From an uncultured Alphaproteobacteria bacterium (lineage in GTDB: Bacteria > Pseudomonadota > Alphaproteobacteria > Rhizobiales > Beijerinckiaceae), in the NCBI GenBank assembly GCA_963785995.1, contig CAWAXL010000012.1, positions 1,556-65,555 on the forward strand: 64,000 bases of DNA, read 5' to 3'. The position numbers and the translations under genes are program-made. Numbering within the stretch: the first letter of the stretch is position 1; every line of letters starts with the position of its first letter. Shown here piece after piece: positions 1,128 to 12,903 of the stretch. The notes under the pieces were generated by a model. It was not told the DNA's origin and did not search any database. It saw nothing but the letters and a program-made list of their open reading frames with translations.

Positions 1128-1424
1128 CTGAATCCTCAAATCTTCCAGGACCTGATCAGTCCTGGCGGATCCAGGTGGACGAACCGCAGCTTCGCATGGC
1201 TTAAAAAGCCGCCTTCAAGAATGGTTTCGTCTTCCTGAGCCCCGCCCGCCGCAAGCGGGATATTGGTGCAGCCGTCGTGAACGGCGACCGAATGTGAGGT
1301 TGATCTGGCGAGGAAACAACCAGGCCGTGCAATCGGGCTGAGACCTTGGATACCGAAAAAGCCGCTGGAGTATTATCGATGCGCGTATGAATCTCATCTC
1401 TTGACCCGAACCTCCCCATGTGAG
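1128..1424 (+). ncRNA. IS1111-type right-end non-coding region (bridge/seek RNA) and element right end
   Basis: Hairpin at 1145-1165 and two internal-loop modules (1178-1231, ~1262-1305) with segments matching the insertion flank and the element end; ends ...CCTCCCCATGTG-AG. Confidence 0.75.
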
Positions 1425-1487
1425 CGAAGCTCTTGATCGGAACAACCCGATGACTGCCCACCAGATCAGTTTGAGCATGTCTCCCAT
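1424..1487 (-). pseudogene. N-terminal remnant of rve/integrase-core transposase, interrupted by the IS1111 element
   Basis: MGDMLKLIWWAVIGLFRSRASL, the characteristic N-terminus of the family whose C-terminus is at 82-210. Confidence 0.75.
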
Positions 1488-1643
1488 GAGCTTTGTCACG
1501 TTCGTGGGTTTTACTTGTCAATAGGGCGGGGCGCTCGAATAGCGAGTGAGAGCCACGGTTGGATGCCGGTTCGCCGTCTTGTGTGCACCTTAGTGTCGCC
1601 GCATTCAACTCTAAGCTAAGGGCACAATTATTTATTTACGGAT

Positions 1644-2345
1644 ATGCAGAACATGGCGCGTGGAATTTCTTCGATCGTGACAACTGCGGTGGTCGCTGGA
1701 GCGATCGGCTTTGGAGCAGGCGTTTATCTCGTACCGAACGAAAAGGCCGACCAATTCCGCGCTATGGCGAACGAAAAGGCGGACCAATTCCGCGCTATGG
1801 TGCAGGGTGGGCTTGGCGCGATCTATCGAGTTGTTTATTCCGACAAGGCTGATCCCGATATTCACCCTTCGGAATCGTCACAAACGAAGCCCCCTGGAGA
1901 GACATCTCGTACAGAGGCGCAACCAGATGTCCCGGCGGGATCGCAGCCTGGCGCCGATGCGCAATGCGATCCTGGCAACTCGACGTGTCGTGGTGGACTC
2001 CCTGTCGATGCCGCAGCTCCACAAGATATCCCTGACCGTGATGTTGCCGCCCCGAGCAGTTCGCCGCCTGAACAAGACGATCAGCCATCACATGCATTGA
2101 ATGCCGATCCTTCTGGAACTGTGCCGCCTGGGATTTCTGACCGTGAGGTTACCGCCCCGAGCAGTTCGCCGCCAGAACAAGACGATCAGCCATCACATGC
2201 GTTGAACACCGATCCTTCTGGAACTTTGCCGCCGAACAGCTCACCAAACATTGAAAGTGATGCCCCTACGCCTGTCGCCCCAGAAACTGCTAAAAAGAAG
2301 CCCCCTGCCAAGAAAGTGAAACCCAAGAGCAGCCCCAGCGAGTAG
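1644..2345 (+). CDS. Membrane-anchored Pro/Ser/Asp-rich hypothetical protein with internal tandem repeats
   Basis: N-terminal hydrophobic helix; 33-bp duplication (1735-1800) and 105-bp duplication (2032-~2233), both in frame; Lys-rich tail. Confidence 0.75.
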   Translation: MQNMARGISSIVTTAVVAGAIGFGAGVYLVPNEKADQFRAMANEKADQFRAMVQGGLGAIYRVVYSDKADPDIHPSESSQTKPPGETSRTEAQPDVPAGSQPGADAQCDPGNSTCRGGLPVDAAAPQDIPDRDVAAPSSSPPEQDDQPSHALNADPSGTVPPGISDREVTAPSSSPPEQDDQPSHALNTDPSGTLPPNSSPNIESDAPTPVAPETAKKKPPAKKVKPKSSPSE

Positions 2346-2544
2346 CTTTTCGCCGATGGGGTCCGGGCCCGCCGAGGTCTTCCTGCAGCCGATGGTCAAG
2401 TGCACGGGCGAGCAGGTTCCTTCGAACAAAGCCGCTGGTGGTTCCTCTCTGGTTTTGACGCCACAGATTGCGAAGCTCACCCACGTTCATCGCCGCGATG
2501 GATTGAGCTTCACATCGGGATCACGTCGCCCTTGACGAAGGCTC

Positions 2545-2835
2545 CTATCGGTCGGCGCTGTCGAGTTGGTGCAGATAGCGTGCAACGCTCTCCTCGATCT
2601 GCGCCATGCGCCGCTGCATCTTGGCGCGCGTGAAGTTCTTGTCCCGATTATTGACCGCCTTGAACTTGCTGCCGTCGATCGCGACGCTGGCCTCAGCGAA
2701 AAGGCCCATCGTGCGGCAGAGCGCTACGAACCGGGTGCAGACCTGACGGATGGCGCGGCCATTGTCCTTGCGGAAGTCGGCGATCGTCTTGTGATCTGGA
2801 ACGAGGCGCCTTGTCAGCCACATCACCTCGATGTT
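2545..2835 (-). pseudogene. IS1182-family transposase internal fragment
   Basis: NIEVMWLTRRLVPDHKTIADFRKDNG...AIDGSKFKAVNNRDKNFT. Confidence 0.9.
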
Positions 2836-3014
2836 CCCCAGAAACTGGACTTCTGGGGACGGGGTCGTGACCTTCTGCATTGCGCCAACAAGAGACATTG
2901 TTGTTGCCGAGATATGCGGTCCGCAAGCAGCTTTATCTCGCCCGAAAATCGTTTCAATATCCTTGTCAGCTGCTGCTCCGGCCGCCCGGCACCAAGAAGA
3001 TGCGAAGGTAACCG

Positions 3015-3590
3015 ATGAACAAGGAACGACTTGCTGCCTTCAGCGACGGCGTTATCGCCGTCATCATCACCATTATGGTGCTAGAGATGAAGGTACCGCG
3101 CGGCTCGGAGCTGGGAGCGCTTTGGCCCTTGGCACCGGTTTTCGGAAGCTATGTGCTGAGCTTCGTGTACGTGGGTATCTACTGGAATAACCACCACCAT
3201 TTGCTGCATGCTGTGCAGTCTATTAACGGCCGCATCCTCTGGGCCAACCTGCATCTGTTATTCTGGCTGTCGCTAATTCCTTTTTGCTCCGGGTGGATGG
3301 GTGAGAACCATTTTGATACTCTGCCGGTCGCACTTTATGGCGTGGTACTCTTAATGTGCGGCATTGCATACTACATTCTCGCGCGGCTCCTGATTGCACA
3401 CCACGGTCATCAGTCAAACCTGGCGATCGCGTTGGGCAGCGACTTCAAGGGGATTGCGTCGGTTCTGCTCTATATCGCGGCCATTCCGCTCGCCTTCTTC
3501 AGCTCGCCAGCTACATTCGCTGTCTATGTGCTCGTTGCGGCTATCTGGTTCATACCAGATCGTCGGATAGAAAGGACGTTTAGGCAATAA
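3015..3590 (+). CDS. TMEM175-family (DUF1211) potassium channel
   Basis: RLAAFSDGVIAVIITIMVLE signature, YWNNHHH, multiple TM helices. Confidence 0.93.
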   Translation: MNKERLAAFSDGVIAVIITIMVLEMKVPRGSELGALWPLAPVFGSYVLSFVYVGIYWNNHHHLLHAVQSINGRILWANLHLLFWLSLIPFCSGWMGENHFDTLPVALYGVVLLMCGIAYYILARLLIAHHGHQSNLAIALGSDFKGIASVLLYIAAIPLAFFSSPATFAVYVLVAAIWFIPDRRIERTFRQ

Positions 3591-4090
3591 AGCGTTCCAT
3601 GTGACCTTGCGAACCGAACGTCCCAGATGATTGTCGACTGAGAAGCCGCAAATGTTGCGTTCACGCTGTGTGAGTTCGAGGCCGACTAACTAAGTACCAA
3701 ATTGTTCCACGAGCGTAGCAGTGGAAAACCTCTCGGTTCTGTAGGAACGTCCGTTCTGGTCAATTCCTGTCATCGAAAACTCTGAGCCGAACTTCCGCAA
3801 AGGGTCGAATGCAGAAGTTCTTCAAATGACTCTGGGACGCCGATAGCATCCGATGATCGTGGAAACACCTCACGCCGAGATGCAGCGAGCGGCAGATCGT
3901 TAATCCGCTCGACAGCCATCGCTCTCATCATGCTCAAGCCGACATCCACCTGATTGGCCCCCCATTGGGTGGTCCGCGCGAATGCTAGTTTAGCCGGGAA
4001 TGACCATTGAAAGCGCTTGAAATCGACGGTATTGGACGCTGCCGAGATTTGACTGTTATCAGTAAGGGAACGGTTAACCAAAACCGTATG

Positions 4091-5128
4091 CTACCGCGCC
4101 AGCGGCCCATTGGCCTTCTTCCAGGCATCGATGCCGCCCTGAATGTGACAGGCGGTCTTGAGGCCGGCGTCCTGCGCGGCTTGTACCGCCATCGCCGAGC
4201 GCTCGCCGAAGGCGCAGTAGAACACAATCCGCTTGCCGGTCGCCGCTGCCAATTCGTGCAGCATGCCGCCTGCGCTGATGTTCTCCTGCAAGTCCGGATA
4301 GGGCGCGTGCAGCGAGCCGGGAATGGTTCCGTGTCTTTCGCGTTCGCTCTTCTCGCGCAGGTCGACGATCGCGACGTCGGGGCGGCCGCGCAACGCCACC
4401 GCCTCGGCCGCCGAGACCGCCCAGCCTTTGCGCGCGATCTCGTCCTGGTGGAGACCGACATGCATGTTGGCCGGCACCGCCACATCCATCATCTTCGGAT
4501 TGGGCAGCTTCAGATTGTTCATGAGGTCGACATATTCGTCGACCGATCCGACCTTGAGCCGCGGGTTGAACTGCTTCTCCTCGCCGATGGTCGAGACCGT
4601 GTCGCCTTTGTAGTCGTGCGCCGGATAGACGAGCGTCTCGTTCGGCAGCTTGAGCAGCTTGCCGAAGATCGAGTCGTATTGCGCGCGTGCATTGCCATTC
4701 TGGAAATCGGTGCGGCCGGTGCCGCGGATGAGCAGCGTGTCGCCGGTGAACACGCGATCGCCCATGAGGAACGAATACGAATCGTCGGTGTGGCCCGGCG
4801 TGTAAAGCACGTCGAGGCTCAATCCCTCGATCTCGATGCAGTCGCCTTCCGTCACGCGCATGGAGACGACGTCGGCGTGCGTTTGCTCGCCCATCACCGT
4901 GATGCAATGGGTGCGGTCGCGCAGCGCACCCAGTCCGGTGACGTGGTCGGCGTGCAGATGCGTGTCGACGGCCTTGACCAGCTTGAGATCGAGCTCGCGC
5001 ACGAGCTGCAGATAGCGGTCGACCTTCTCCAGCACCGGATCGATGATCAGCGCCTCGCCGCCATGCCGGCTGGCGATGAGATAGGTGTAGGTGCTGGAAA
5101 CGCTGTCGAAGAGCTGGCGGAATATCAT
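4091..5128 (-). CDS. Persulfide dioxygenase (ETHE1-like MBL fold) fused to rhodanese
   Basis: THLHADH, TPGHT, GDTLLIRGTGRTDF, PAHDY; C-terminal rhodanese loop FYCAFGERS. Confidence 0.93.
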   Translation of the reverse strand: MIFRQLFDSVSSTYTYLIASRHGGEALIIDPVLEKVDRYLQLVRELDLKLVKAVDTHLHADHVTGLGALRDRTHCITVMGEQTHADVVSMRVTEGDCIEIEGLSLDVLYTPGHTDDSYSFLMGDRVFTGDTLLIRGTGRTDFQNGNARAQYDSIFGKLLKLPNETLVYPAHDYKGDTVSTIGEEKQFNPRLKVGSVDEYVDLMNNLKLPNPKMMDVAVPANMHVGLHQDEIARKGWAVSAAEAVALRGRPDVAIVDLREKSERERHGTIPGSLHAPYPDLQENISAGGMLHELAAATGKRIVFYCAFGERSAMAVQAAQDAGLKTACHIQGGIDAWKKANGPLAR

Positions 5129-5261
5129 CGGCGACTCCGTTCCGCGAATCTTACGCCGGACACCTCGTGAAAGCGTCAGGCGCCGAGCAAGGGTGCGGCG
5201 ATTGTAAGGACGGAAAAATGTTTTGCCCCTGGCCCCGCAGGCCGGAGAGAGGGCATCGCTG

Positions 5262-5926
5262 TTACGCCTTCGGCTGCGGCACGATGCGGATGTAGGGCTT
5301 CGGCGCCTTCCAGCCTTGCGGATATTGCTTCTTGGCGTCCTCGTCGGTCACCGAGCCGGCGATGATCACGTCCTCGCCCTGCTTCCAGTTCACCGGCGTC
5401 GCGACCTTGTGCTTGGCGGTGAGCTGCAGCGAGTTGATCACGCGCAGCACCTCGTCGAAGTTGCGGCCGGTGGTCATCGGATAGACGAGGATCAGCTTGA
5501 TCTTCTTGTCGGGCCCGATGACGAAGACGTTGCGCACGGTCTGGTTGTCGGCCGGCGGTGCGCTTGGCTGGATCGCCGGACACGGCCGCCGGCAGCATGC
5601 CGTAGAGCTTCGAGACGTTGAAGTCGGTGTCGCCGATCATCGGATAGTTGGGCGCAAAGCCCTGCGTCTCCTTGATGTCGTCCGCCCAGCCGGAGTGCTG
5701 CTCGACCGGATCGACGCGAGAGGCCGATGATCTTGACGCCACGCTTGTCGAACTCGGGTTTGATCTTGGCCATGTAGCCTAGCTCGGTGGTGCAGACCGG
5801 CGTGAAATCCTTCGGGTGCGAGAACAGCACGGCCCAGGAATTGCCGATCCAGTCGTGGAAGCGGATTTTGCCTTCGGTCGTTTGCGCCTCGAAATCCGGC
5901 GCGGTGTCGTTGATTGCAAGAGTCAT
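5262..5926 (-). CDS. 1-Cys peroxiredoxin (Prx6), two frameshifts
   Basis: [16 protein letters not shown] and [21 protein letters not shown] split across three frames. Confidence 0.9.
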
Positions 5927-6020
5927 CACATACTCCGTCAGGTGGGTGTAAGGGATGGCCTGGGGGCCGGTATCGCGTCTACGACTTAAGCGCTCAGGCG
6001 ACCGTCTCAGAGAGGGCGGT

Positions 6021-6494
6021 CTAATGGTGGTCGTCCTGTTCCTCGTGATGCGGTCCGGGGGGCTCGGTTTTGACCATATTGGACTGCCCCTCTTCCGAGT
6101 GGTCGATGAACAGGACCTTGGTCGGCGTCGAGCCGGCATTCATGCCGTGATGCCGGGTCCCGATCGCCTCGACGAAGATCGTTCCGGCCGAGAATTCCCG
6201 CCGGGTACCGTTCTCCAGTTCGATCGACAGCGTGCCGTCGATCACATAGACATAGCGAATATTCGGATGCTCGTGCCACCCGACATCGACGCCAGGCGGG
6301 ATCTCCACCATCGTGGCAGTGACTTGTGGATTTTTGCCGGGATATTCCAGCTTCTGGCCGGTGATCGTTGTGGCCGTCTTCAGCAACGGAGTTGCCTTCA
6401 CAGTCGGTTGCTGCTGGGCCCAGGCGGTCGTGGTGGCGAGAAGCAGGACAAGGAACCCGGCAGACAGCTTTTGCATCCTCATGGCGCGCTCCAC
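6021..6494 (-). CDS. Secreted cupin-domain protein with His-rich tail
   Basis: Signal peptide ending AWA, WHEHP...[11 protein letters not shown] cupin motifs, tail HHEEQDDHH. Confidence 0.85.
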
Positions 6495-6654
6495 CCCCGA
6501 TGTTCAAATATTAAAGCCTTAGGGCCTCGTCGCCAAGCCCAGTCGGCTCGAAAAATCGTGTCGAGGTGCAATAGCGTGGGCGTTGCAAAGAGCGCCACAT
6601 CAAGAGGGGACGTCAGCCATGCAGATTCCCACTGCCATATAGCGCCGCACACCG

Positions 6655-8483: not shown

Positions 8484-8649
8484 GGGTTTTCTCCACCTCT
8501 TCAACGTTCACACTATACAAATTTAGGGTGAGCGAGCCGTTCTCTCGAGACACTGTCGCTTTTATGAGTGCGTGTGCAATACGGTCGGGTGCAGTGTATG
8601 CATCCGGTGTGAACCGCAGGCGCTTTCCGATTTTTCCTGGCGCAGATGT

Positions 8650-8877
8650 TCACGCGGCGGCGGCAGGCACGAGCTGACGAGCCTTGTTCCAGGTCCACGG
8701 GAGCAATTCGTCGATCTGCTTCACCGGATGGTCCGGCAAGCGGGCAAGGATGTCGGCGAGCCAGGCCTGAGGATCGACGTCATTTAACTTGCATGTCTCG
8801 ATCAGTGTGTAGACCGCAGCGGCGCGACGTCCGCCTTCATCAGAGCCAGCGAATGTCCAATTTTTTCTGCCAACCGC
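8650..8877 (-). pseudogene. tnpC: IS66 TnpC C-terminal part
   Basis: AVGRKNWTFAGSDEGGRRAAAVYTLIETCKLNDVDPQAWLADILARL...LLPW. Confidence 0.92.
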
Positions 8878-9356
8878 CATCACCCGTTCATTCTGCCCAT
8901 GTCGGGCAGGAGTTGGAAGTCCATTACCGGTGGCACCCGTATTTTGGCAGCAAGGTTGCTGTCCGTCGTGTGGAGCAGCGAGCAACTGGGCAATTTCTTC
9001 AGGTGCTGGGGCCAGCCGGCGTTGTGGTCTCGATGGCAGGGTGGATGCTCGATCCCGTCATCTGCGCCGGAATGACTTTTGGCGGCCCGCGCGTCGATCT
9101 CGCCGCACTCGTCGAGTTGGAGCGACTGTTGATAGGTGCGATCAATCCCGCACAGTGCCGGAGCGATGTTGCGATCGTTCCGGAGGAAGGCAATGCAGTC
9201 TCCCAAAGCGTCGGCGGTGGAGCCGGCTCGGCAGCTGACCCTGTTATTCGACAACACCAGGCTGGAAAGGCTGGGCTCTGCGGAGCGGGACAAGATCATT
9301 TCGGCGTTGGCTCAGATCCTCATGCAGGCGGCCGGCCTCAGCGTCGAGGAGCTTGA
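8878..9356 (+). CDS. Accessory ORF1 of the LSR element; its RBS and start lie at the opposite end (11446)
   Basis: SPVHSAHVGQELEVHYRWHPYFG...WMLDPVIC.GM resembles Y4bD/Y4pK-type proteins (from memory); in frame with ATG 11446 after circularisation. Confidence 0.7.
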
Positions 9357-9372
9357 CGATGACAAGCGCTGA
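9193..9372 (+). CDS. Small accessory ORF2 of the LSR element (59 aa)
   Basis: Strong RBS GGAGGAAGG before ATG 9193; MQSPKASAVEPARQLTLLF...; overlaps the LSR start. Confidence 0.7.
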   Translation: MQSPKASAVEPARQLTLLFDNTRLERLGSAERDKIISALAQILMQAAGLSVEELDDDKR

Positions 9373-11431
9373 AATGATTCCGGCGGTCATCCTCAAGAAG
9401 AAGGCTGTCGTCTATGTGCGCCAGTCGACGCAATCCCAGGTGATGACCAACCTGGAGGGCAAGCGGCGCCAATATGATCTGGTCGATGTCGCCCGCCAAC
9501 ACGGTTTCGTGGATGTTGAAATCATCGACGACGATCTCGGCCGGTCGGCGAGCGGAACGGTGGCGCGCCCCGGCTTTGACCGCTTGGTGGCATGGCTGTG
9601 CGCCGGGAAGGTCGGCGCTGTCTTGTGCTTCGATGCTTCCAGGCTCGCGCGAAACGGTCGCGATTGGCATCACCTGCTTGAATTGTGTGGGCTTGTCGAA
9701 GCCCGCGTCATTGATGGCGAGGGTGTCTATAACCCGTGTCGCCCAAATGATCGCCTACTCCTTGGCATGAAAGGCAGCATCAGCGAGTTCGAACTCGGCG
9801 TGCTACGCACCAGGATGTTGGACGCCGCCCGGTCCAAGGCCAGCCGGGGCGAGCTGCGCTTGTCGGTTCCCTTCGGCTACATCTGGCACCGGGAAGCAGG
9901 GCTTGGCCTTGATCCCGATCTACGTCTCCAGGAGGTCATTCGCCTCATCTTCGTCCGCTTCCGTGAACTCGGCAGCGCGCGCCAGGTTCTGCTCTCGATG
10001 AAAGCCGATCATATCCACTTCCCACGTCCCTCTGATGAGGGCCGCATGACGAGCTTCGACTGGACGCCGATCCGCTACCGCAATGTGATCGCCGTTCTCA
10101 AGAATCCCTTCTACGCCGGGGTCTACGTTTACGGGAAAAGCGAGAAACGCACCTCCATTGTCGACGGAAGGGCACGACGGAGCTACGGGCATGGCAAGCC
10201 GATCGGGACATGGGAGGTGATGATCAAGGATCATCACGAAGGCTATATCCGCTGGGCGGAATATGAGCGCAACCAGAAGCAGCTCGCCCTCAACAATTAC
10301 GGCCGTGCCGGAGGCGTGAAGTCCGGCCGGGGCGGCAAGGCGCTTCTGTCAGGCGTCATGACTTGCCGTCGATGCGGACGGCGACTGAGCGTCGCATATA
10401 CGGGCAATCCTCAAAGTCGGCCGGTATATCGCTGCGACAAGCCAAACCTTATGATGGGGCTGCCGCGGTGCATGACCTTCGGCGGCCCGCGAGTCGACGC
10501 GGCGGTCTCCCGAGAGTTGTTGCTGGCGGTGGAGCCAATGGCGATTGACGCGGCTTTCGAGGCGGAGCGGATGCACCGGGAACAACAGGAAGACCAGCAA
10601 CGCATCTTGGACATGGAAATGCAGCAGGCTCGTTATGAGGCAAGTCTGGCCGAGCGCCGTTACGCGGCCTGCGATCCCGACAATCGTCTCATTGCCGCAC
10701 AGTTAGAAAGAAACTGGGAGACGGCGCTGCGGCGTGTCCGGGAACTGGAGATGCGCCAGCCCGCGGAACGGCCGTCAGACATCGAGGTCGACCCGAGCGC
10801 CTTCACGAACCTGGCGGACAATCTGTCGGCAGCATGGCATGCTCCGAACGTTACGATGCGTGCCCGACAGCAACTGCTGCGGACATTGATCGCCGACATC
10901 ATCGTCGATGTCGACGACGACGCGCGTGAGGTCGTGCTCACGATTCATTGGCGTGGCGGTCAGCATTCCGAACTGCGCGTCCGTAAACCACGGGCTGGCG
11001 AGCATGGTTGCGCGACGACAGAGGACGCTTTGGCGGTCATGCGCAGCATGGCCGGTCGCTGGTCGGACGAGCATATCGCCGCGTCGCTCAATCGAATGGG
11101 CATGCCCACAGGCCAAGGCAAAACCTGGACAGCGCATCGCGTTTCTTCGGTTCGACGCGTGCGTGGAATCCATGCCTATCGATCGGCGGAAAAGGACGGC
11201 GAATGGCTCACCATGACGGAGGCGGCAAAGCTGTTGGGCGTCACACACCATACAATTCGGCGCCTGATCAAAACGGGCGTCCTTCCTGCGGTGCAGGTTG
11301 TTGCCGGCGCTCCGCATCAAATACGGGCCGACGACTTGGCGTCGGACCCGGTGAGAACGGCGGTGGCCCGTAAAGGTCGCCCGTGTCGCGCTGTCGACGC
11401 GGACACGCTTCCAATGTTTCCAGATACTTGA
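9359..11431 (+). CDS. Large serine recombinase with C-terminal excisionase-like HTH
   Basis: AVVYVRQS catalytic motif, DASRLARN, recombinase domain, Zn ribbon CRRC...YRC, coiled coil, WLTMTEAAKLLGVTHHTIRRLIKTG; intact; RBS GAGGAG. Confidence 0.95.
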   Translation: MTSAEMIPAVILKKKAVVYVRQSTQSQVMTNLEGKRRQYDLVDVARQHGFVDVEIIDDDLGRSASGTVARPGFDRLVAWLCAGKVGAVLCFDASRLARNGRDWHHLLELCGLVEARVIDGEGVYNPCRPNDRLLLGMKGSISEFELGVLRTRMLDAARSKASRGELRLSVPFGYIWHREAGLGLDPDLRLQEVIRLIFVRFRELGSARQVLLSMKADHIHFPRPSDEGRMTSFDWTPIRYRNVIAVLKNPFYAGVYVYGKSEKRTSIVDGRARRSYGHGKPIGTWEVMIKDHHEGYIRWAEYERNQKQLALNNYGRAGGVKSGRGGKALLSGVMTCRRCGRRLSVAYTGNPQSRPVYRCDKPNLMMGLPRCMTFGGPRVDAAVSRELLLAVEPMAIDAAFEAERMHREQQEDQQRILDMEMQQARYEASLAERRYAACDPDNRLIAAQLERNWETALRRVRELEMRQPAERPSDIEVDPSAFTNLADNLSAAWHAPNVTMRARQQLLRTLIADIIVDVDDDAREVVLTIHWRGGQHSELRVRKPRAGEHGCATTEDALAVMRSMAGRWSDEHIAASLNRMGMPTGQGKTWTAHRVSSVRRVRGIHAYRSAEKDGEWLTMTEAAKLLGVTHHTIRRLIKTGVLPAVQVVAGAPHQIRADDLASDPVRTAVARKGRPCRAVDADTLPMFPDT

Positions 11432-11459
11432 AAAAGGGGCGCACAATGACTCACGCATC

Positions 11460-12903
11460 GCTATACCGCGCACCGCTCGTTCGGCGGCATTGTTGCTAAG
11501 GCAGACTCGCCCATCGTCTAGGAAGCGGGTGAAGGCGGTCCAGCGTTTGAGGACGTAGTCGATCGCCTTGGCGAGGTCGTTCCGCGCGAGAGCTGGCACG
11601 TTGCTCGCGCAGCCAGCTGTCCAGCGCCTCGACGAGTGGCGACTGAGCTCCTGACGGACGCACCCGCGCTCCTCCGGCGCGTTGCCGTTGATCGTCCGCT
11701 CGATCTCGAACAGTGCATCGATGCGTCGCACGGCTTCCATGGCTAGCGGCGAGATCACTCCCGGCGTTTGGCCTTGCGCCTTGCGACGGGCGTTCTCGCC
11801 AGATCAGCCATGGCGAAGAAAGGGCGGCGGGCATGGGCCCAGCATGCTGCTTCCAGGATCGGGCCCGGCTTGCGATCGGGCTCGTATAACTTGTTGTATC
11901 CGCCGTAAGCGTCAGCCTGGAAGATTCCGGCATAGGTGGCCAGATGCGCCTGGGGGTGCTCGCCGGCTCGATCGCGCGAGTAATAGAACATTGCTGCCGG
12001 CGGCGCGGCGCCGCCGAAAGGGCGATCGTCGCGCACATAAACCCAACATCGACCGGTGTCGGTCTTGCCCTTGGCCAGGACCGGCACGGTGGTGTCATCG
12101 CCGTGCAATCGGTCGGCTGCAAAGACATGCGCTTCAAAGCGCTTGAGGATCGGGTCCAGCACCGCGCAGCCGGCCCCCACCTGGTCGGCCAAGGTCGACA
12201 AGCTGAGCGGCACGCCTTCCTTGGCGTAGCGTTCGGCCTGGCGGTTGAGCGGCTGATGCTGCCCGAACTTCTCGAACAGGATCAATGCCAGAAGACTGGG
12301 ACCGGCCCAGCCCCTGGCGATCACATGGAACGGCGCCGGAGCCTGGCTGATCTTCTCGCAGTCCCGGCAGGTGAATTTCTCGCGGACATGCTGGATCACC
12401 TTCCATTGGCGTGGGATTGATTCCAGCGTCTCGGTGATGCTCTCGCCCAATTTGCGCAGCCGCCCGCCGCCGCAGCAAAGGCAAGCGCTCGGTCCCGGCA
12501 CGATAACCCGCTCGCGCGGCAGATGCTCGGGGAACGGCTTGCGCGCGGGGCGCTTGCGGGTGAAGGCCGCCACCGTTGTGGTTTTGGCCACGGCCATCTC
12601 GGCGACGATTTCGTCCTCGGTAGCCGAACTCTCCAGCTCCTCGAACTGCAACTCGATCTGATCCAGAAGCCGGGATGTGCGTTCCGAGCGCGGGCCATAG
12701 AGCTGCCGCGTCAGCTTCTCGATCCGCAGTTGCTGGTGGGCGATCAGGGCCTGATCATCGGAGGCCTTGGCTCTCGCCACTGCGAGTTCCGCTTCAGCGT
12801 ATGCTGCCCTGGCCACTTCGACGATACGCGCATCGCGCGCCGCGACCAGCGCCGCCTTTAGCTCCTCGATGTCATTGGGAAAGGCTTCACGACCCGAATC
12901 CAT
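11460..12903 (-). pseudogene. tnpC: IS66 TnpC N-terminal and catalytic part, with frameshifts near the 3' end
   Basis: LYGPRSER, HLPRERV, CLCCGG, LHGDDTTVPVL, QADAYGGY, CWAHARR, SNNAAERAVRGIA. Confidence 0.93.

Follow-up and report, generated by a model that had tools for sequence, protein, structure and literature searches.

Circles formed by insertion sequences (IS) such as IS911 and the IS110/IS1111 group carry promoters assembled at the junction of the joined ends. In Tn4451, which is moved by TnpX, an expression signal is likewise assembled in the circle only (Lyras & Rood 2000, cited in PMC13023037). In mycobacteriophage BPs and its relatives, the attachment site attP lies inside the repressor gene 33 and immunity is integration-dependent (PMC4557955). 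Here we describe a locus to be compared with these systems, located in a 64,000-nucleotide (nt) stretch of contig CAWAXL010000012.1 (assembly GCA_963785995.1) from an uncultured alphaproteobacterium of the Beijerinckiaceae; the whole of this stretch is called the window, its numbering is used throughout, and the integrated element is read on the plus strand. The element encodes a large serine recombinase (LSR) and interrupts an IS66 tnpC gene. Its attP crossover is placed inside the element's own open reading frame (ORF), ORF1, and the integrated and joined forms are thereby predicted to encode different products. As in BPs, attP is inside one of the element's own ORFs, what is encoded differs between integrated and excised forms, and recombination would act as a genetic switch (PMC4557955). 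In BPs, however, the gene loses its 3' end, which carries a degradation tag, and activity resides in the shortened product of the prophage, whereas here it is the 5' end, comprising the Shine-Dalgarno (SD) sequence, the ATG and five codons, that is lost, which leaves the integrated gene without a start. BPs also pairs a repressor gene with a tyrosine integrase, whereas the present 2.6-kb non-phage unit pairs a predicted LSR cofactor with a serine integrase. With Tn4451 the element shares an LSR-driven reaction in which the joined ends create an expression signal exclusive to the excised form; a promoter is assembled there and in the IS circles, whereas the present element brings a translation start together with a coding body. 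A sequence-only reading of the window, in which the split was first noticed, knew of no description of an att-split design, but an att-split gene is already on record in BPs (PMC4557955).

In the integrated element the LSR stop codon (TGA, 11429-11431) is followed by 14 nt that include AAAGGGG and then by an ATG at 11446, which opens just the 17-aa peptide MTHASLYRAPLVRRHCC. Joining 11461 to 8878 gives instead a 164-aa ORF1 that has the crossover dinucleotide GC inside codons 5-6 and runs to 9356, leaving 2 nt between its stop and the LSR ATG at 9359. All of these landmarks, from the LSR stop and the AAAGGGG to the 17-aa read-out and the end of the joined frame, agree with those of the sequence-only reading. 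That reading also took the circle to be coding on one strand except for 14 nt; the one-strand coding is borne out, and the noncoding gaps amount to 14 and 2 nt rather than 14 alone. We propose that the element belongs to a family of cut-and-paste elements of about 2.6 kb, very abundant and apparently undescribed, that an LSR would move and that would insert at a conserved IS66 tnpC motif through a 2-bp (GC) crossover. Its attP would lie within the 5' end of ORF1, so that the right end of the element, left of the crossover, holds the SD sequence, the ATG and five codons and the left end, right of the crossover, holds the remainder of ORF1. Integration would detach ORF1 from its translation start, and joining of the ends, in an excised circle or a head-to-tail tandem, would rebuild the gene. 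We consider it likely that translation of ORF1 from the right-end start requires joined ends, so that recombination switches the gene on and off.

The arrangement is conserved among relatives. The close ones comprise the two copies in this genome, in the window and on contig C7 (98% identical, with 64 differences), and twelve plasmid copies. In all 14 an SD sequence (mostly GAAGGAG) and an ATG stand exactly 16 nt from the right end, in frame with the left-end ORF; the joined ORF1 is intact in 12, at 163-166 aa, and frameshifted further downstream in the other 2. Relatives down to about 30-55% identity were recovered by tblastn with the ORF1 domain. In nine distant subfamilies the junctions were placed so as to make the target gene whole again. 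In every case an SD sequence and an ATG come after the LSR stop, in frame with a start-less left-end ORF, giving 167-172 aa (9/9). These subfamilies insert in IS66 tnpC, in IS66 tnpB (either orientation) or in the part of IS3-family orfB that encodes the transposase C-terminus, and the crossover overlaps differ.

The same design recurs outside the 2.6-kb elements. The small genes beside the y4bA-type recombinase of Rhizobium NGR234, which the sequence-only reading had mentioned, are modules of pNGR234a (NC_000914.2, about 33.9-37.3 kb, and two more copies) in which a DUF5372 gene, a helix-turn-helix (HTH) gene, a small ORF and the recombinase follow one another. The ends of the three copies are set by three different flanks. 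At the right end AAGGTG is followed after 7 nt by an ATG, and joining yields a 106-aa ORF, MSAPSFKSRTAVRTDTQ(V/A)RIEFEVTHPFHP..., that is in frame in 3/3. These modules resemble the window element in having a homologous DUF5372 gene upstream of the LSR, an att-split start and an antisense insertion in transposase genes. They differ in being 3.3-kb four-gene units with the overlap CCTT that target motifs of IS21-like and other DDE transposases, in having no nested ORF2, and in a DUF5372 ORF that ends far from the LSR start. A further, more distant DUF5372-HTH-LSR locus, G559, joins in frame as well (MKQTFTITLPFHPL), with ends taken only from an 8-nt repeat, which by itself might be chance. The earlier reading had proposed to see whether the frame is conserved, and it is, in 14/14 close relatives, 9/9 distant subfamilies and 3/3 pNGR234a copies, against about 1/3 expected by chance. 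As judged from these comparisons, the presence of an SD sequence and ATG together with an in-frame start-less ORF in every relative examined is far from chance.

The joined order is also found in natural DNA. A JGI contig of 1,351 nt (L058) reads LSR 3' end, stop, SD sequence, ATG, junction, ORF1, ORF2 and LSR 5' end, as predicted, and an ENA contig (L258) has the same joined order in another subfamily. Two decayed joined examples lie within longer contigs (L168 and L096), two more joined contigs are known from gene calls only, and the predicted ORF1 N-termini recur in natural junction contigs. In L260, a 42-kb long-read contig, two diverged copies that are 84% and 91% identical to the window element stand head to tail in one IS66 tnpC (1424-6609), separated by an attP-like junction. 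The divergence of the copies shows that the tandem is not the product of a duplication, and the assembled order implies that a second element inserted beside a resident one, formally by attP x attR or attP x attL. On this contig evidence the joined state certainly occurs as a head-to-tail tandem. The sequence-only reading had ORF1 made from the excised circle alone; joined ends do rebuild the gene, but a chromosomal tandem is joined too and the restriction to circles is too narrow. No contig joining 11461 to 8878 was found in four runs, of which the assembled contigs alone were searched, a result that says nothing about circles. A scan of genomes and metagenomes with a 16-base junction pattern was set aside as too loose, 157 of its 159 loci being chance matches.

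Selection on ORF1 was assessed from the ratio of non-synonymous to synonymous polymorphism (pN/pS) over 12 relatives. In the ORF1 frame, pN/pS is 0.16-0.41 over codons 1-80, about 0.75 over codons 81-120 and 1.7-1.8 over codons 121-160, and where it reaches 1.7-1.8 the frame of ORF2, a short ORF nested in the ORF1 tail, has values of 0.42-0.70. This pattern indicates selection on the ORF1 N-terminal domain and on ORF2, but not on the sequence of the ORF1 tail. The purifying selection on ORF1 begins at the junction, and a low synonymous rate in codons 1-20 fits the overlapping attP. The tail is open in 12/12 relatives, although synonymous recoding of ORF2 leaves the ORF1 frame open in just 4-13% of cases, and it always ends just before the LSR ATG or, in another subfamily, overlaps it as ATGA. 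Given that expectation, selection seems to maintain an open path for translation from the junction ATG past the ORF2 start to the LSR start. Ribosomes that set out from the junction ATG would cross the one and reach the other, which suggests that the tail serves in translational coupling to the LSR and in occlusion of ORF2.

These features of the tail could be taken to mean that the junction ORF is chiefly translational, a circle-specific upstream ORF that couples ribosomes to the LSR start and occludes ORF2. It would then be an analogue, at the level of translation, of the junction promoters of IS circles and Tn4451, and a tail that is unconstrained yet open in every relative, with an end that always falls within a few nt of the LSR ATG or overlaps it, is what such a device would leave behind. 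Yet the N-terminal 80-100 codons are under clear purifying selection and encode a DUF5372 domain predicted to bind the LSR (below), and the DUF5372 ORF of pNGR234a ends about 900 nt before the LSR. We therefore regard this account as extremely unlikely to be the main one; the translational mechanism may operate alongside a protein function rather than instead of it.

The family of ORF1 was not evident from routine searches. Pfam hmmscan returned nothing significant for ORF1 or ORF2; the window ORF1 gave no match to PF17342 (DUF5372) at the gathering score, and 1 of 32 relatives gave a hit, at E 0.034; and a six-frame search of the element's own genome with the DUF5372 Pfam model found no match. 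Comparison of an ORF1 alignment with bona fide DUF5372 by hhalign gave a probability of 94.5% and an E-value of 7.9e-8 over 75 columns, tblastn of ORF1 against DUF5372 loci gave 26-28% identity at E 4e-6 to 8e-5, and Atlas language-model features gave a DUF5372 score of 0.93, with 63 of 100 matches in this family. These alignments and features identify the ORF1 N-terminal domain as a divergent member of DUF5372. DUF5372 genes above the Pfam cut-off occur in 6 of 401 Pseudomonadota genomes, in all six directly upstream of an LSR, and likewise in pNGR234a; a single query of a phage collection found no DUF5372. In the modest AlphaFold2 model of ORF1 (mean predicted local distance difference test score, pLDDT, 53), residues 12-53 form a small barrel of four strands, residues 74-87 form a helix and the tail is disordered; a Foldseek search of the PDB with this model returned only weak Tudor/SH3-like barrels (E at least 0.12).

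A complex of the LSR with the ORF1 domain was predicted with an interface score (ipSAE) of 0.68 (0.65-0.69 across runs) versus 0.00 for the best control. That level was reached by 58 of 80 solved complexes and by 2 of 110 mismatched pairs, counts that are rough as our own alignments were used. Contacts agreed between runs to at least 84%, and the pLDDT of the partner was at least 74. The predicted contacts involve LSR residues 335-342, 386-403, 475-515 and 528-538, which correspond to the zinc ribbon, both feet of the coiled coil and the last strands of DBD2 (the second domain that binds DNA). The verified recombination directionality factors (RDFs) are all predicted to bind the junction of DBD2 and the coiled coil (PMC12286644; see also PMC5814800). 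ORF1 is thus predicted to bind its LSR at the zinc-ribbon/coiled-coil junction, the RDF site. Like phiC31 gp3 (PMC5814800) and SPbeta SprB and the predicted RDFs (PMC12286644), it would be a small accessory protein placed at the DBD2/coiled-coil junction of the cognate LSR. It differs from them in lacking any sequence or fold relation to known RDFs, and its state-specific synthesis suggests a timing opposite to that of the phage factors. Fusions of ORF1 to the LSR were considered as "Rosetta stone" evidence for the interaction and rejected, the few long proteins being deletion or frameshift derivatives; a fusion in subfamily L056 was not used, as it may likewise be such a derivative.

From the predicted complex we judge it just on the probable side that the ORF1 product is an LSR-binding directionality cofactor. 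As to the direction in which it acts, a pro-integration or anti-excision role is favoured, though tentatively, because an excision factor made by a non-replicating circle would keep that circle from integrating, and protein that lingered would re-excise new insertions. In the joined state the cofactor would be made, probably with more LSR and less ORF2, which would bias the reaction toward integration; once integrated, the element would carry a decapitated cofactor gene and would in this way sense its own topological state.

Occupancy of the RDF site would also be accounted for if the split is real and ORF1 is a classical, excision-promoting RDF, made from tandems or by leaky read-through, with the splitting serving to lock single insertions. 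Tandem arrays with a complete ORF1 do exist, and integration would then be irreversible without any regulator. The argument from the non-replicating circle, which would hinder its own integration and endanger new insertions, speaks against this, and ORF2, which would be co-expressed with the LSR whether the element is joined or integrated, is available as a candidate excision factor. We consider a classical RDF unlikely. The preferred reading, a cofactor made in the joined state that promotes integration or opposes excision, may extend further. It is possible, though less likely than not, that DUF5372 proteins are in general state-coupled directionality cofactors of non-phage LSR elements, their gene straddling attP so that the joined form alone makes the cofactor; the LSR would then automatically be directed to integration in the excised form and to excision in the integrated one.

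If ORF1 is switched by its start, the integrated element should offer no other one that is kept. The in-frame ATG at 8853, in the flank, lacks an SD sequence and is absent from the C7 copy. In 5 of 14 contexts no ATG, GTG or TTG lies in the open frame upstream of the junction, two of these having a stop one codon upstream, and in 4 of 14 an SD-less ATG lies six codons upstream, derived from the antisense of an xCA-TGG pair in tnpC. The first in-frame ATG internal to ORF1 is codon 58, beyond the conserved barrel. Public gene calls place the ORF1 start at dozens of different positions, flank-derived or internal, as expected with the true start lying elsewhere. In the contexts compared there is no conserved ORF1 start in the integrated state; synthesis from the 8853 ATG or from an internal start, which the sequence-only reading had weighed against its own proposal, was accordingly not borne out.

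The alternative in which these starts would matter is that the right-end SD-like sequence and ATG are kept merely as an attP half-site and that ORF1 is made in the integrated state from flank, internal or non-canonical starts, with no switch. The ATG is indeed part of an inverted repeat in attP, GCAnAATGA in the left arm and TCATTnTGC in the right, equidistant from the core, and the spacing from the ATG to the domain is 27 nt in all IS-targeting subfamilies, so that conservation of frame and ATG could partly reflect a constraint on the LSR binding site. (A 6-nt shorter spacing in L045, L050 and L051 was rejected; the usual length of the tnpC motif gives 27 nt throughout.) The SD-less flank ATG six codons upstream is present in about a third of IS66 contexts and is used by gene callers. 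A half-site does not, however, explain a purine-rich SD sequence that has no mirror in the other arm, nor its retention together with the ATG in L056, where the mirrored attP arm has changed, nor the same arrangement in pNGR234a and G559 with unrelated end sequences and different spacings. Flank starts are missing from the 5 contexts noted above, purifying selection runs from the junction onward, the internal GTG used by PGAP in copy 1 of pNGR234a is lost in copy 3, where the codon is GCC, and ORF1 is left without another usable start. A half-site without a switch is thus highly unlikely.

The repeat, the invariant spacing and the flank ATG nevertheless weigh against a start-switched LSR cofactor, as do several further points. 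The SD sequence in the window (AAAGGGG) is weaker than in most relatives. The joined contigs do not tell a free circle from tandem copies, and no junction-spanning RNA was seen in assembled contigs. No sigma-70 consensus site was found in 8500-11800, in a scan made on the integrated sequence and not on the joined ends; by eye, relatives have TTTACA...CATAAT with a 19-nt spacing, wholly in the right end. The complex of ORF1 and the LSR is a model and not a measurement, and, by analogy with phage systems, a cofactor that occupies the RDF site should favour excision, which fits poorly with synthesis only after excision.

The boundaries of the element were established from occupied and empty sites (Table 1). 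Deletion of 8878-11461 in silico restores the tnpC frame ...NNAAERAVRGIA^VGRKNWTFAGS... (...RGIA^VGRKNW at the joint, marked by a caret). The C7 copy occupies the same tnpC position in a different IS66 copy (about 75% identical), and in both genomic copies GC is all that the end of the left flank and the right end of the element have in common. A third IS66 copy, on contig C28, is uninterrupted and has exactly the flanks of the C7 copy joined via a single GC; this occupied/empty pair defines attB and the 2-bp crossover and shows no other duplication. The vacant attB (C28:6515-6946 of the same genome, G000) is identical to the site occupied on C7, so that a free target exists in this 69%-complete genome. 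A DNA contig from a peat metagenome lacks precisely 2,584 nt at 8874/11459, with an ambiguity of 3 bases, and collapsed-repeat contigs of 2,583-2,586 nt in other assemblies have the same first and last bases. Insertion is therefore conservative, with a 2-bp crossover, no target duplication beyond the core and a precise empty site. The 2.58-kb LSR contigs were also considered as circles and rejected, as they are linear collapsed repeat units, one of which continues into the flank.

Table 1. Features of the LSR element and its insertion site, in window coordinates
Feature	Position	Strand	Remarks
LSR element: ORF1 body, ORF2, LSR, ORF1 start module	8878..11461	+	2,584 bp, antisense in IS66 tnpC
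IS66 tnpC, C-terminal part, interrupted (attB left half in element orientation)	8650..8877	-	
Crossover dinucleotide GC, attL copy	8876..8877	.	repeated at 11460-11461
attP right arm, nucleotide-conserved CCCGTTCATTCTGCCCATGTCGG	8878..8905	.	TCATTnTGC mirrors left-arm GCAnAATGA
ORF1 body, without start codon when integrated	8878..9356	+	frame continues from 11461; TGA 9354-9356
DUF5372-like domain of ORF1: predicted small beta-barrel and helix	8919..9143	+	hhalign, Atlas features, AlphaFold2 model
ORF2, 59 aa	9193..9372	+	other frame, nested in ORF1 tail; 14-nt overlap with LSR start
Large serine recombinase, 690 aa	9359..11431	+	PF00239, PF07508, PF13408, PF12728; C-terminal HTH_17
Conserved nucleotide block, LSR 3' end	11409..11429	+	synonymous positions included
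SD-like AAAGGGG for ORF1	11433..11439	+	GAAGGAG in most relatives; 5-8 nt before ATG
ORF1 5' module: ATG and 5 codons (MTHAS), first base of codon 6	11446..11461	+	
Crossover dinucleotide GC, attR copy	11460..11461	.	two genomic copies and empty site
IS66 tnpC, N-terminal part, interrupted	11462..12903	-	extra frameshift near 11755

Two further observations concern the target. On the minus strand at 11750-11760, tnpC still shifts frame near 11755 after removal of the element (...AKRRE* followed by ...VISPLAMEAV in another frame), and because this change persists without the element the host IS66 copy is probably a pseudogene regardless of the insertion. A metatranscriptome RNA contig (run X16) matches the element until 11450 and then continues into sense-oriented tnpC (...ALGRKSW), as an insertion in the opposite orientation would look; the palindromic GC core would allow that.

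The recombinase has Pfam matches to PF00239 (E 4.8e-20), PF07508 (E 5.4e-16) and PF13408 (E 8.6e-7), that is, a resolvase catalytic domain with the motif VYVRQS, a recombinase domain (DBD1) and a zinc-ribbon domain (DBD2). By this domain set and by its mode of insertion the element is an LSR mobile element, with catalysis predicted. Both genomic copies of the element appear intact, and their LSR genes differ at 40 synonymous versus 8 non-synonymous positions. Residues 618-662 (11210-11345) form an HTH_17 domain of the excisionase/MerR type that is absent from classical phage LSRs, and the JGI label for the protein is "excisionase family DNA binding protein". The 21-nt block near the end of the LSR gene, TTCCAATGTTTaCAGAyACTT, is invariant across elements whose overall identity is only 74-82%; its distance from the core is too great for a usual attP arm, and it may be an HTH_17 site or a promoter element.

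ORF2 is annotated by PGAP in relatives. It has the motif LAQ(I/L)LMQAAG, which is kept in distant subfamilies, followed by an acidic tail, and ORF2 is conserved in all 2.6-kb subfamilies. We regard it as a candidate second cofactor.

Relatives of the element are widespread. A blastn search recovered 256 plasmid records, 91 of them with full-length relatives at 74-82% DNA identity, carried by Rhizobium, Sinorhizobium, Bradyrhizobium, Mesorhizobium, Microvirga, Methylocystis, Novosphingobium, Croceicoccus and others. The LSR protein search returned at least 8,000 clusters and a profile search with the N-terminal domain of ORF1 returned 1,568 representatives at 50% identity, and in RefSeq-derived tables ORF2 and the LSR are annotated and ORF1 almost never. 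Related subfamilies (L049, L054, L055, L056 and L272-L275) occupy conserved motifs in other transposase genes, their sites being RG^DR(V/L)K in IS66 tnpB (both orientations), the transposase C-terminus of IS3-family elements and a DKAKVE-type motif in IS21-like and other DDE transposases. As a group, the DUF5372-LSR elements seem to be specialised in parasitising transposable elements.

As a minimal non-phage LSR element in a gene that precise excision restores, the gin element of Bacillus cereus, which sits in gerE, is comparable; gin restores a host sporulation gene during development, whereas the present element rebuilds a gene of its own and targets mobile elements (PMC5595907). In the open-access literature no paper was found on DUF5372, y4bA or a serine-recombinase element in IS66. 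Nor did we find described the loss of a translation start rather than of a 3' end, a split gene that encodes a DUF5372 partner of an LSR, the nested ORF2, or an element family of this kind in transposase genes.

If the proposed switch is correct, DUF5372, a Pfam domain of unknown function, would gain both a function and a mode of regulation. The erratic annotation of ORF1 would also be explained: it is skipped or assigned many starts because its own is at the opposite end of the element, 2.6 kb away. If an ORF1 or ORF2 product proves to be a compact directionality cofactor, the LSR/cofactor pairs could serve in reversible genome integration. For annotation, the lesson is that circularising elements can carry genes split across their ends. 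For the biology of these elements, the findings describe a very abundant family that parasitises other transposable elements and point to a coupling of recombination direction to integration state that needs no regulator. If true, this would be a self-contained two-state switch, used by hyperparasites that live inside transposase genes.

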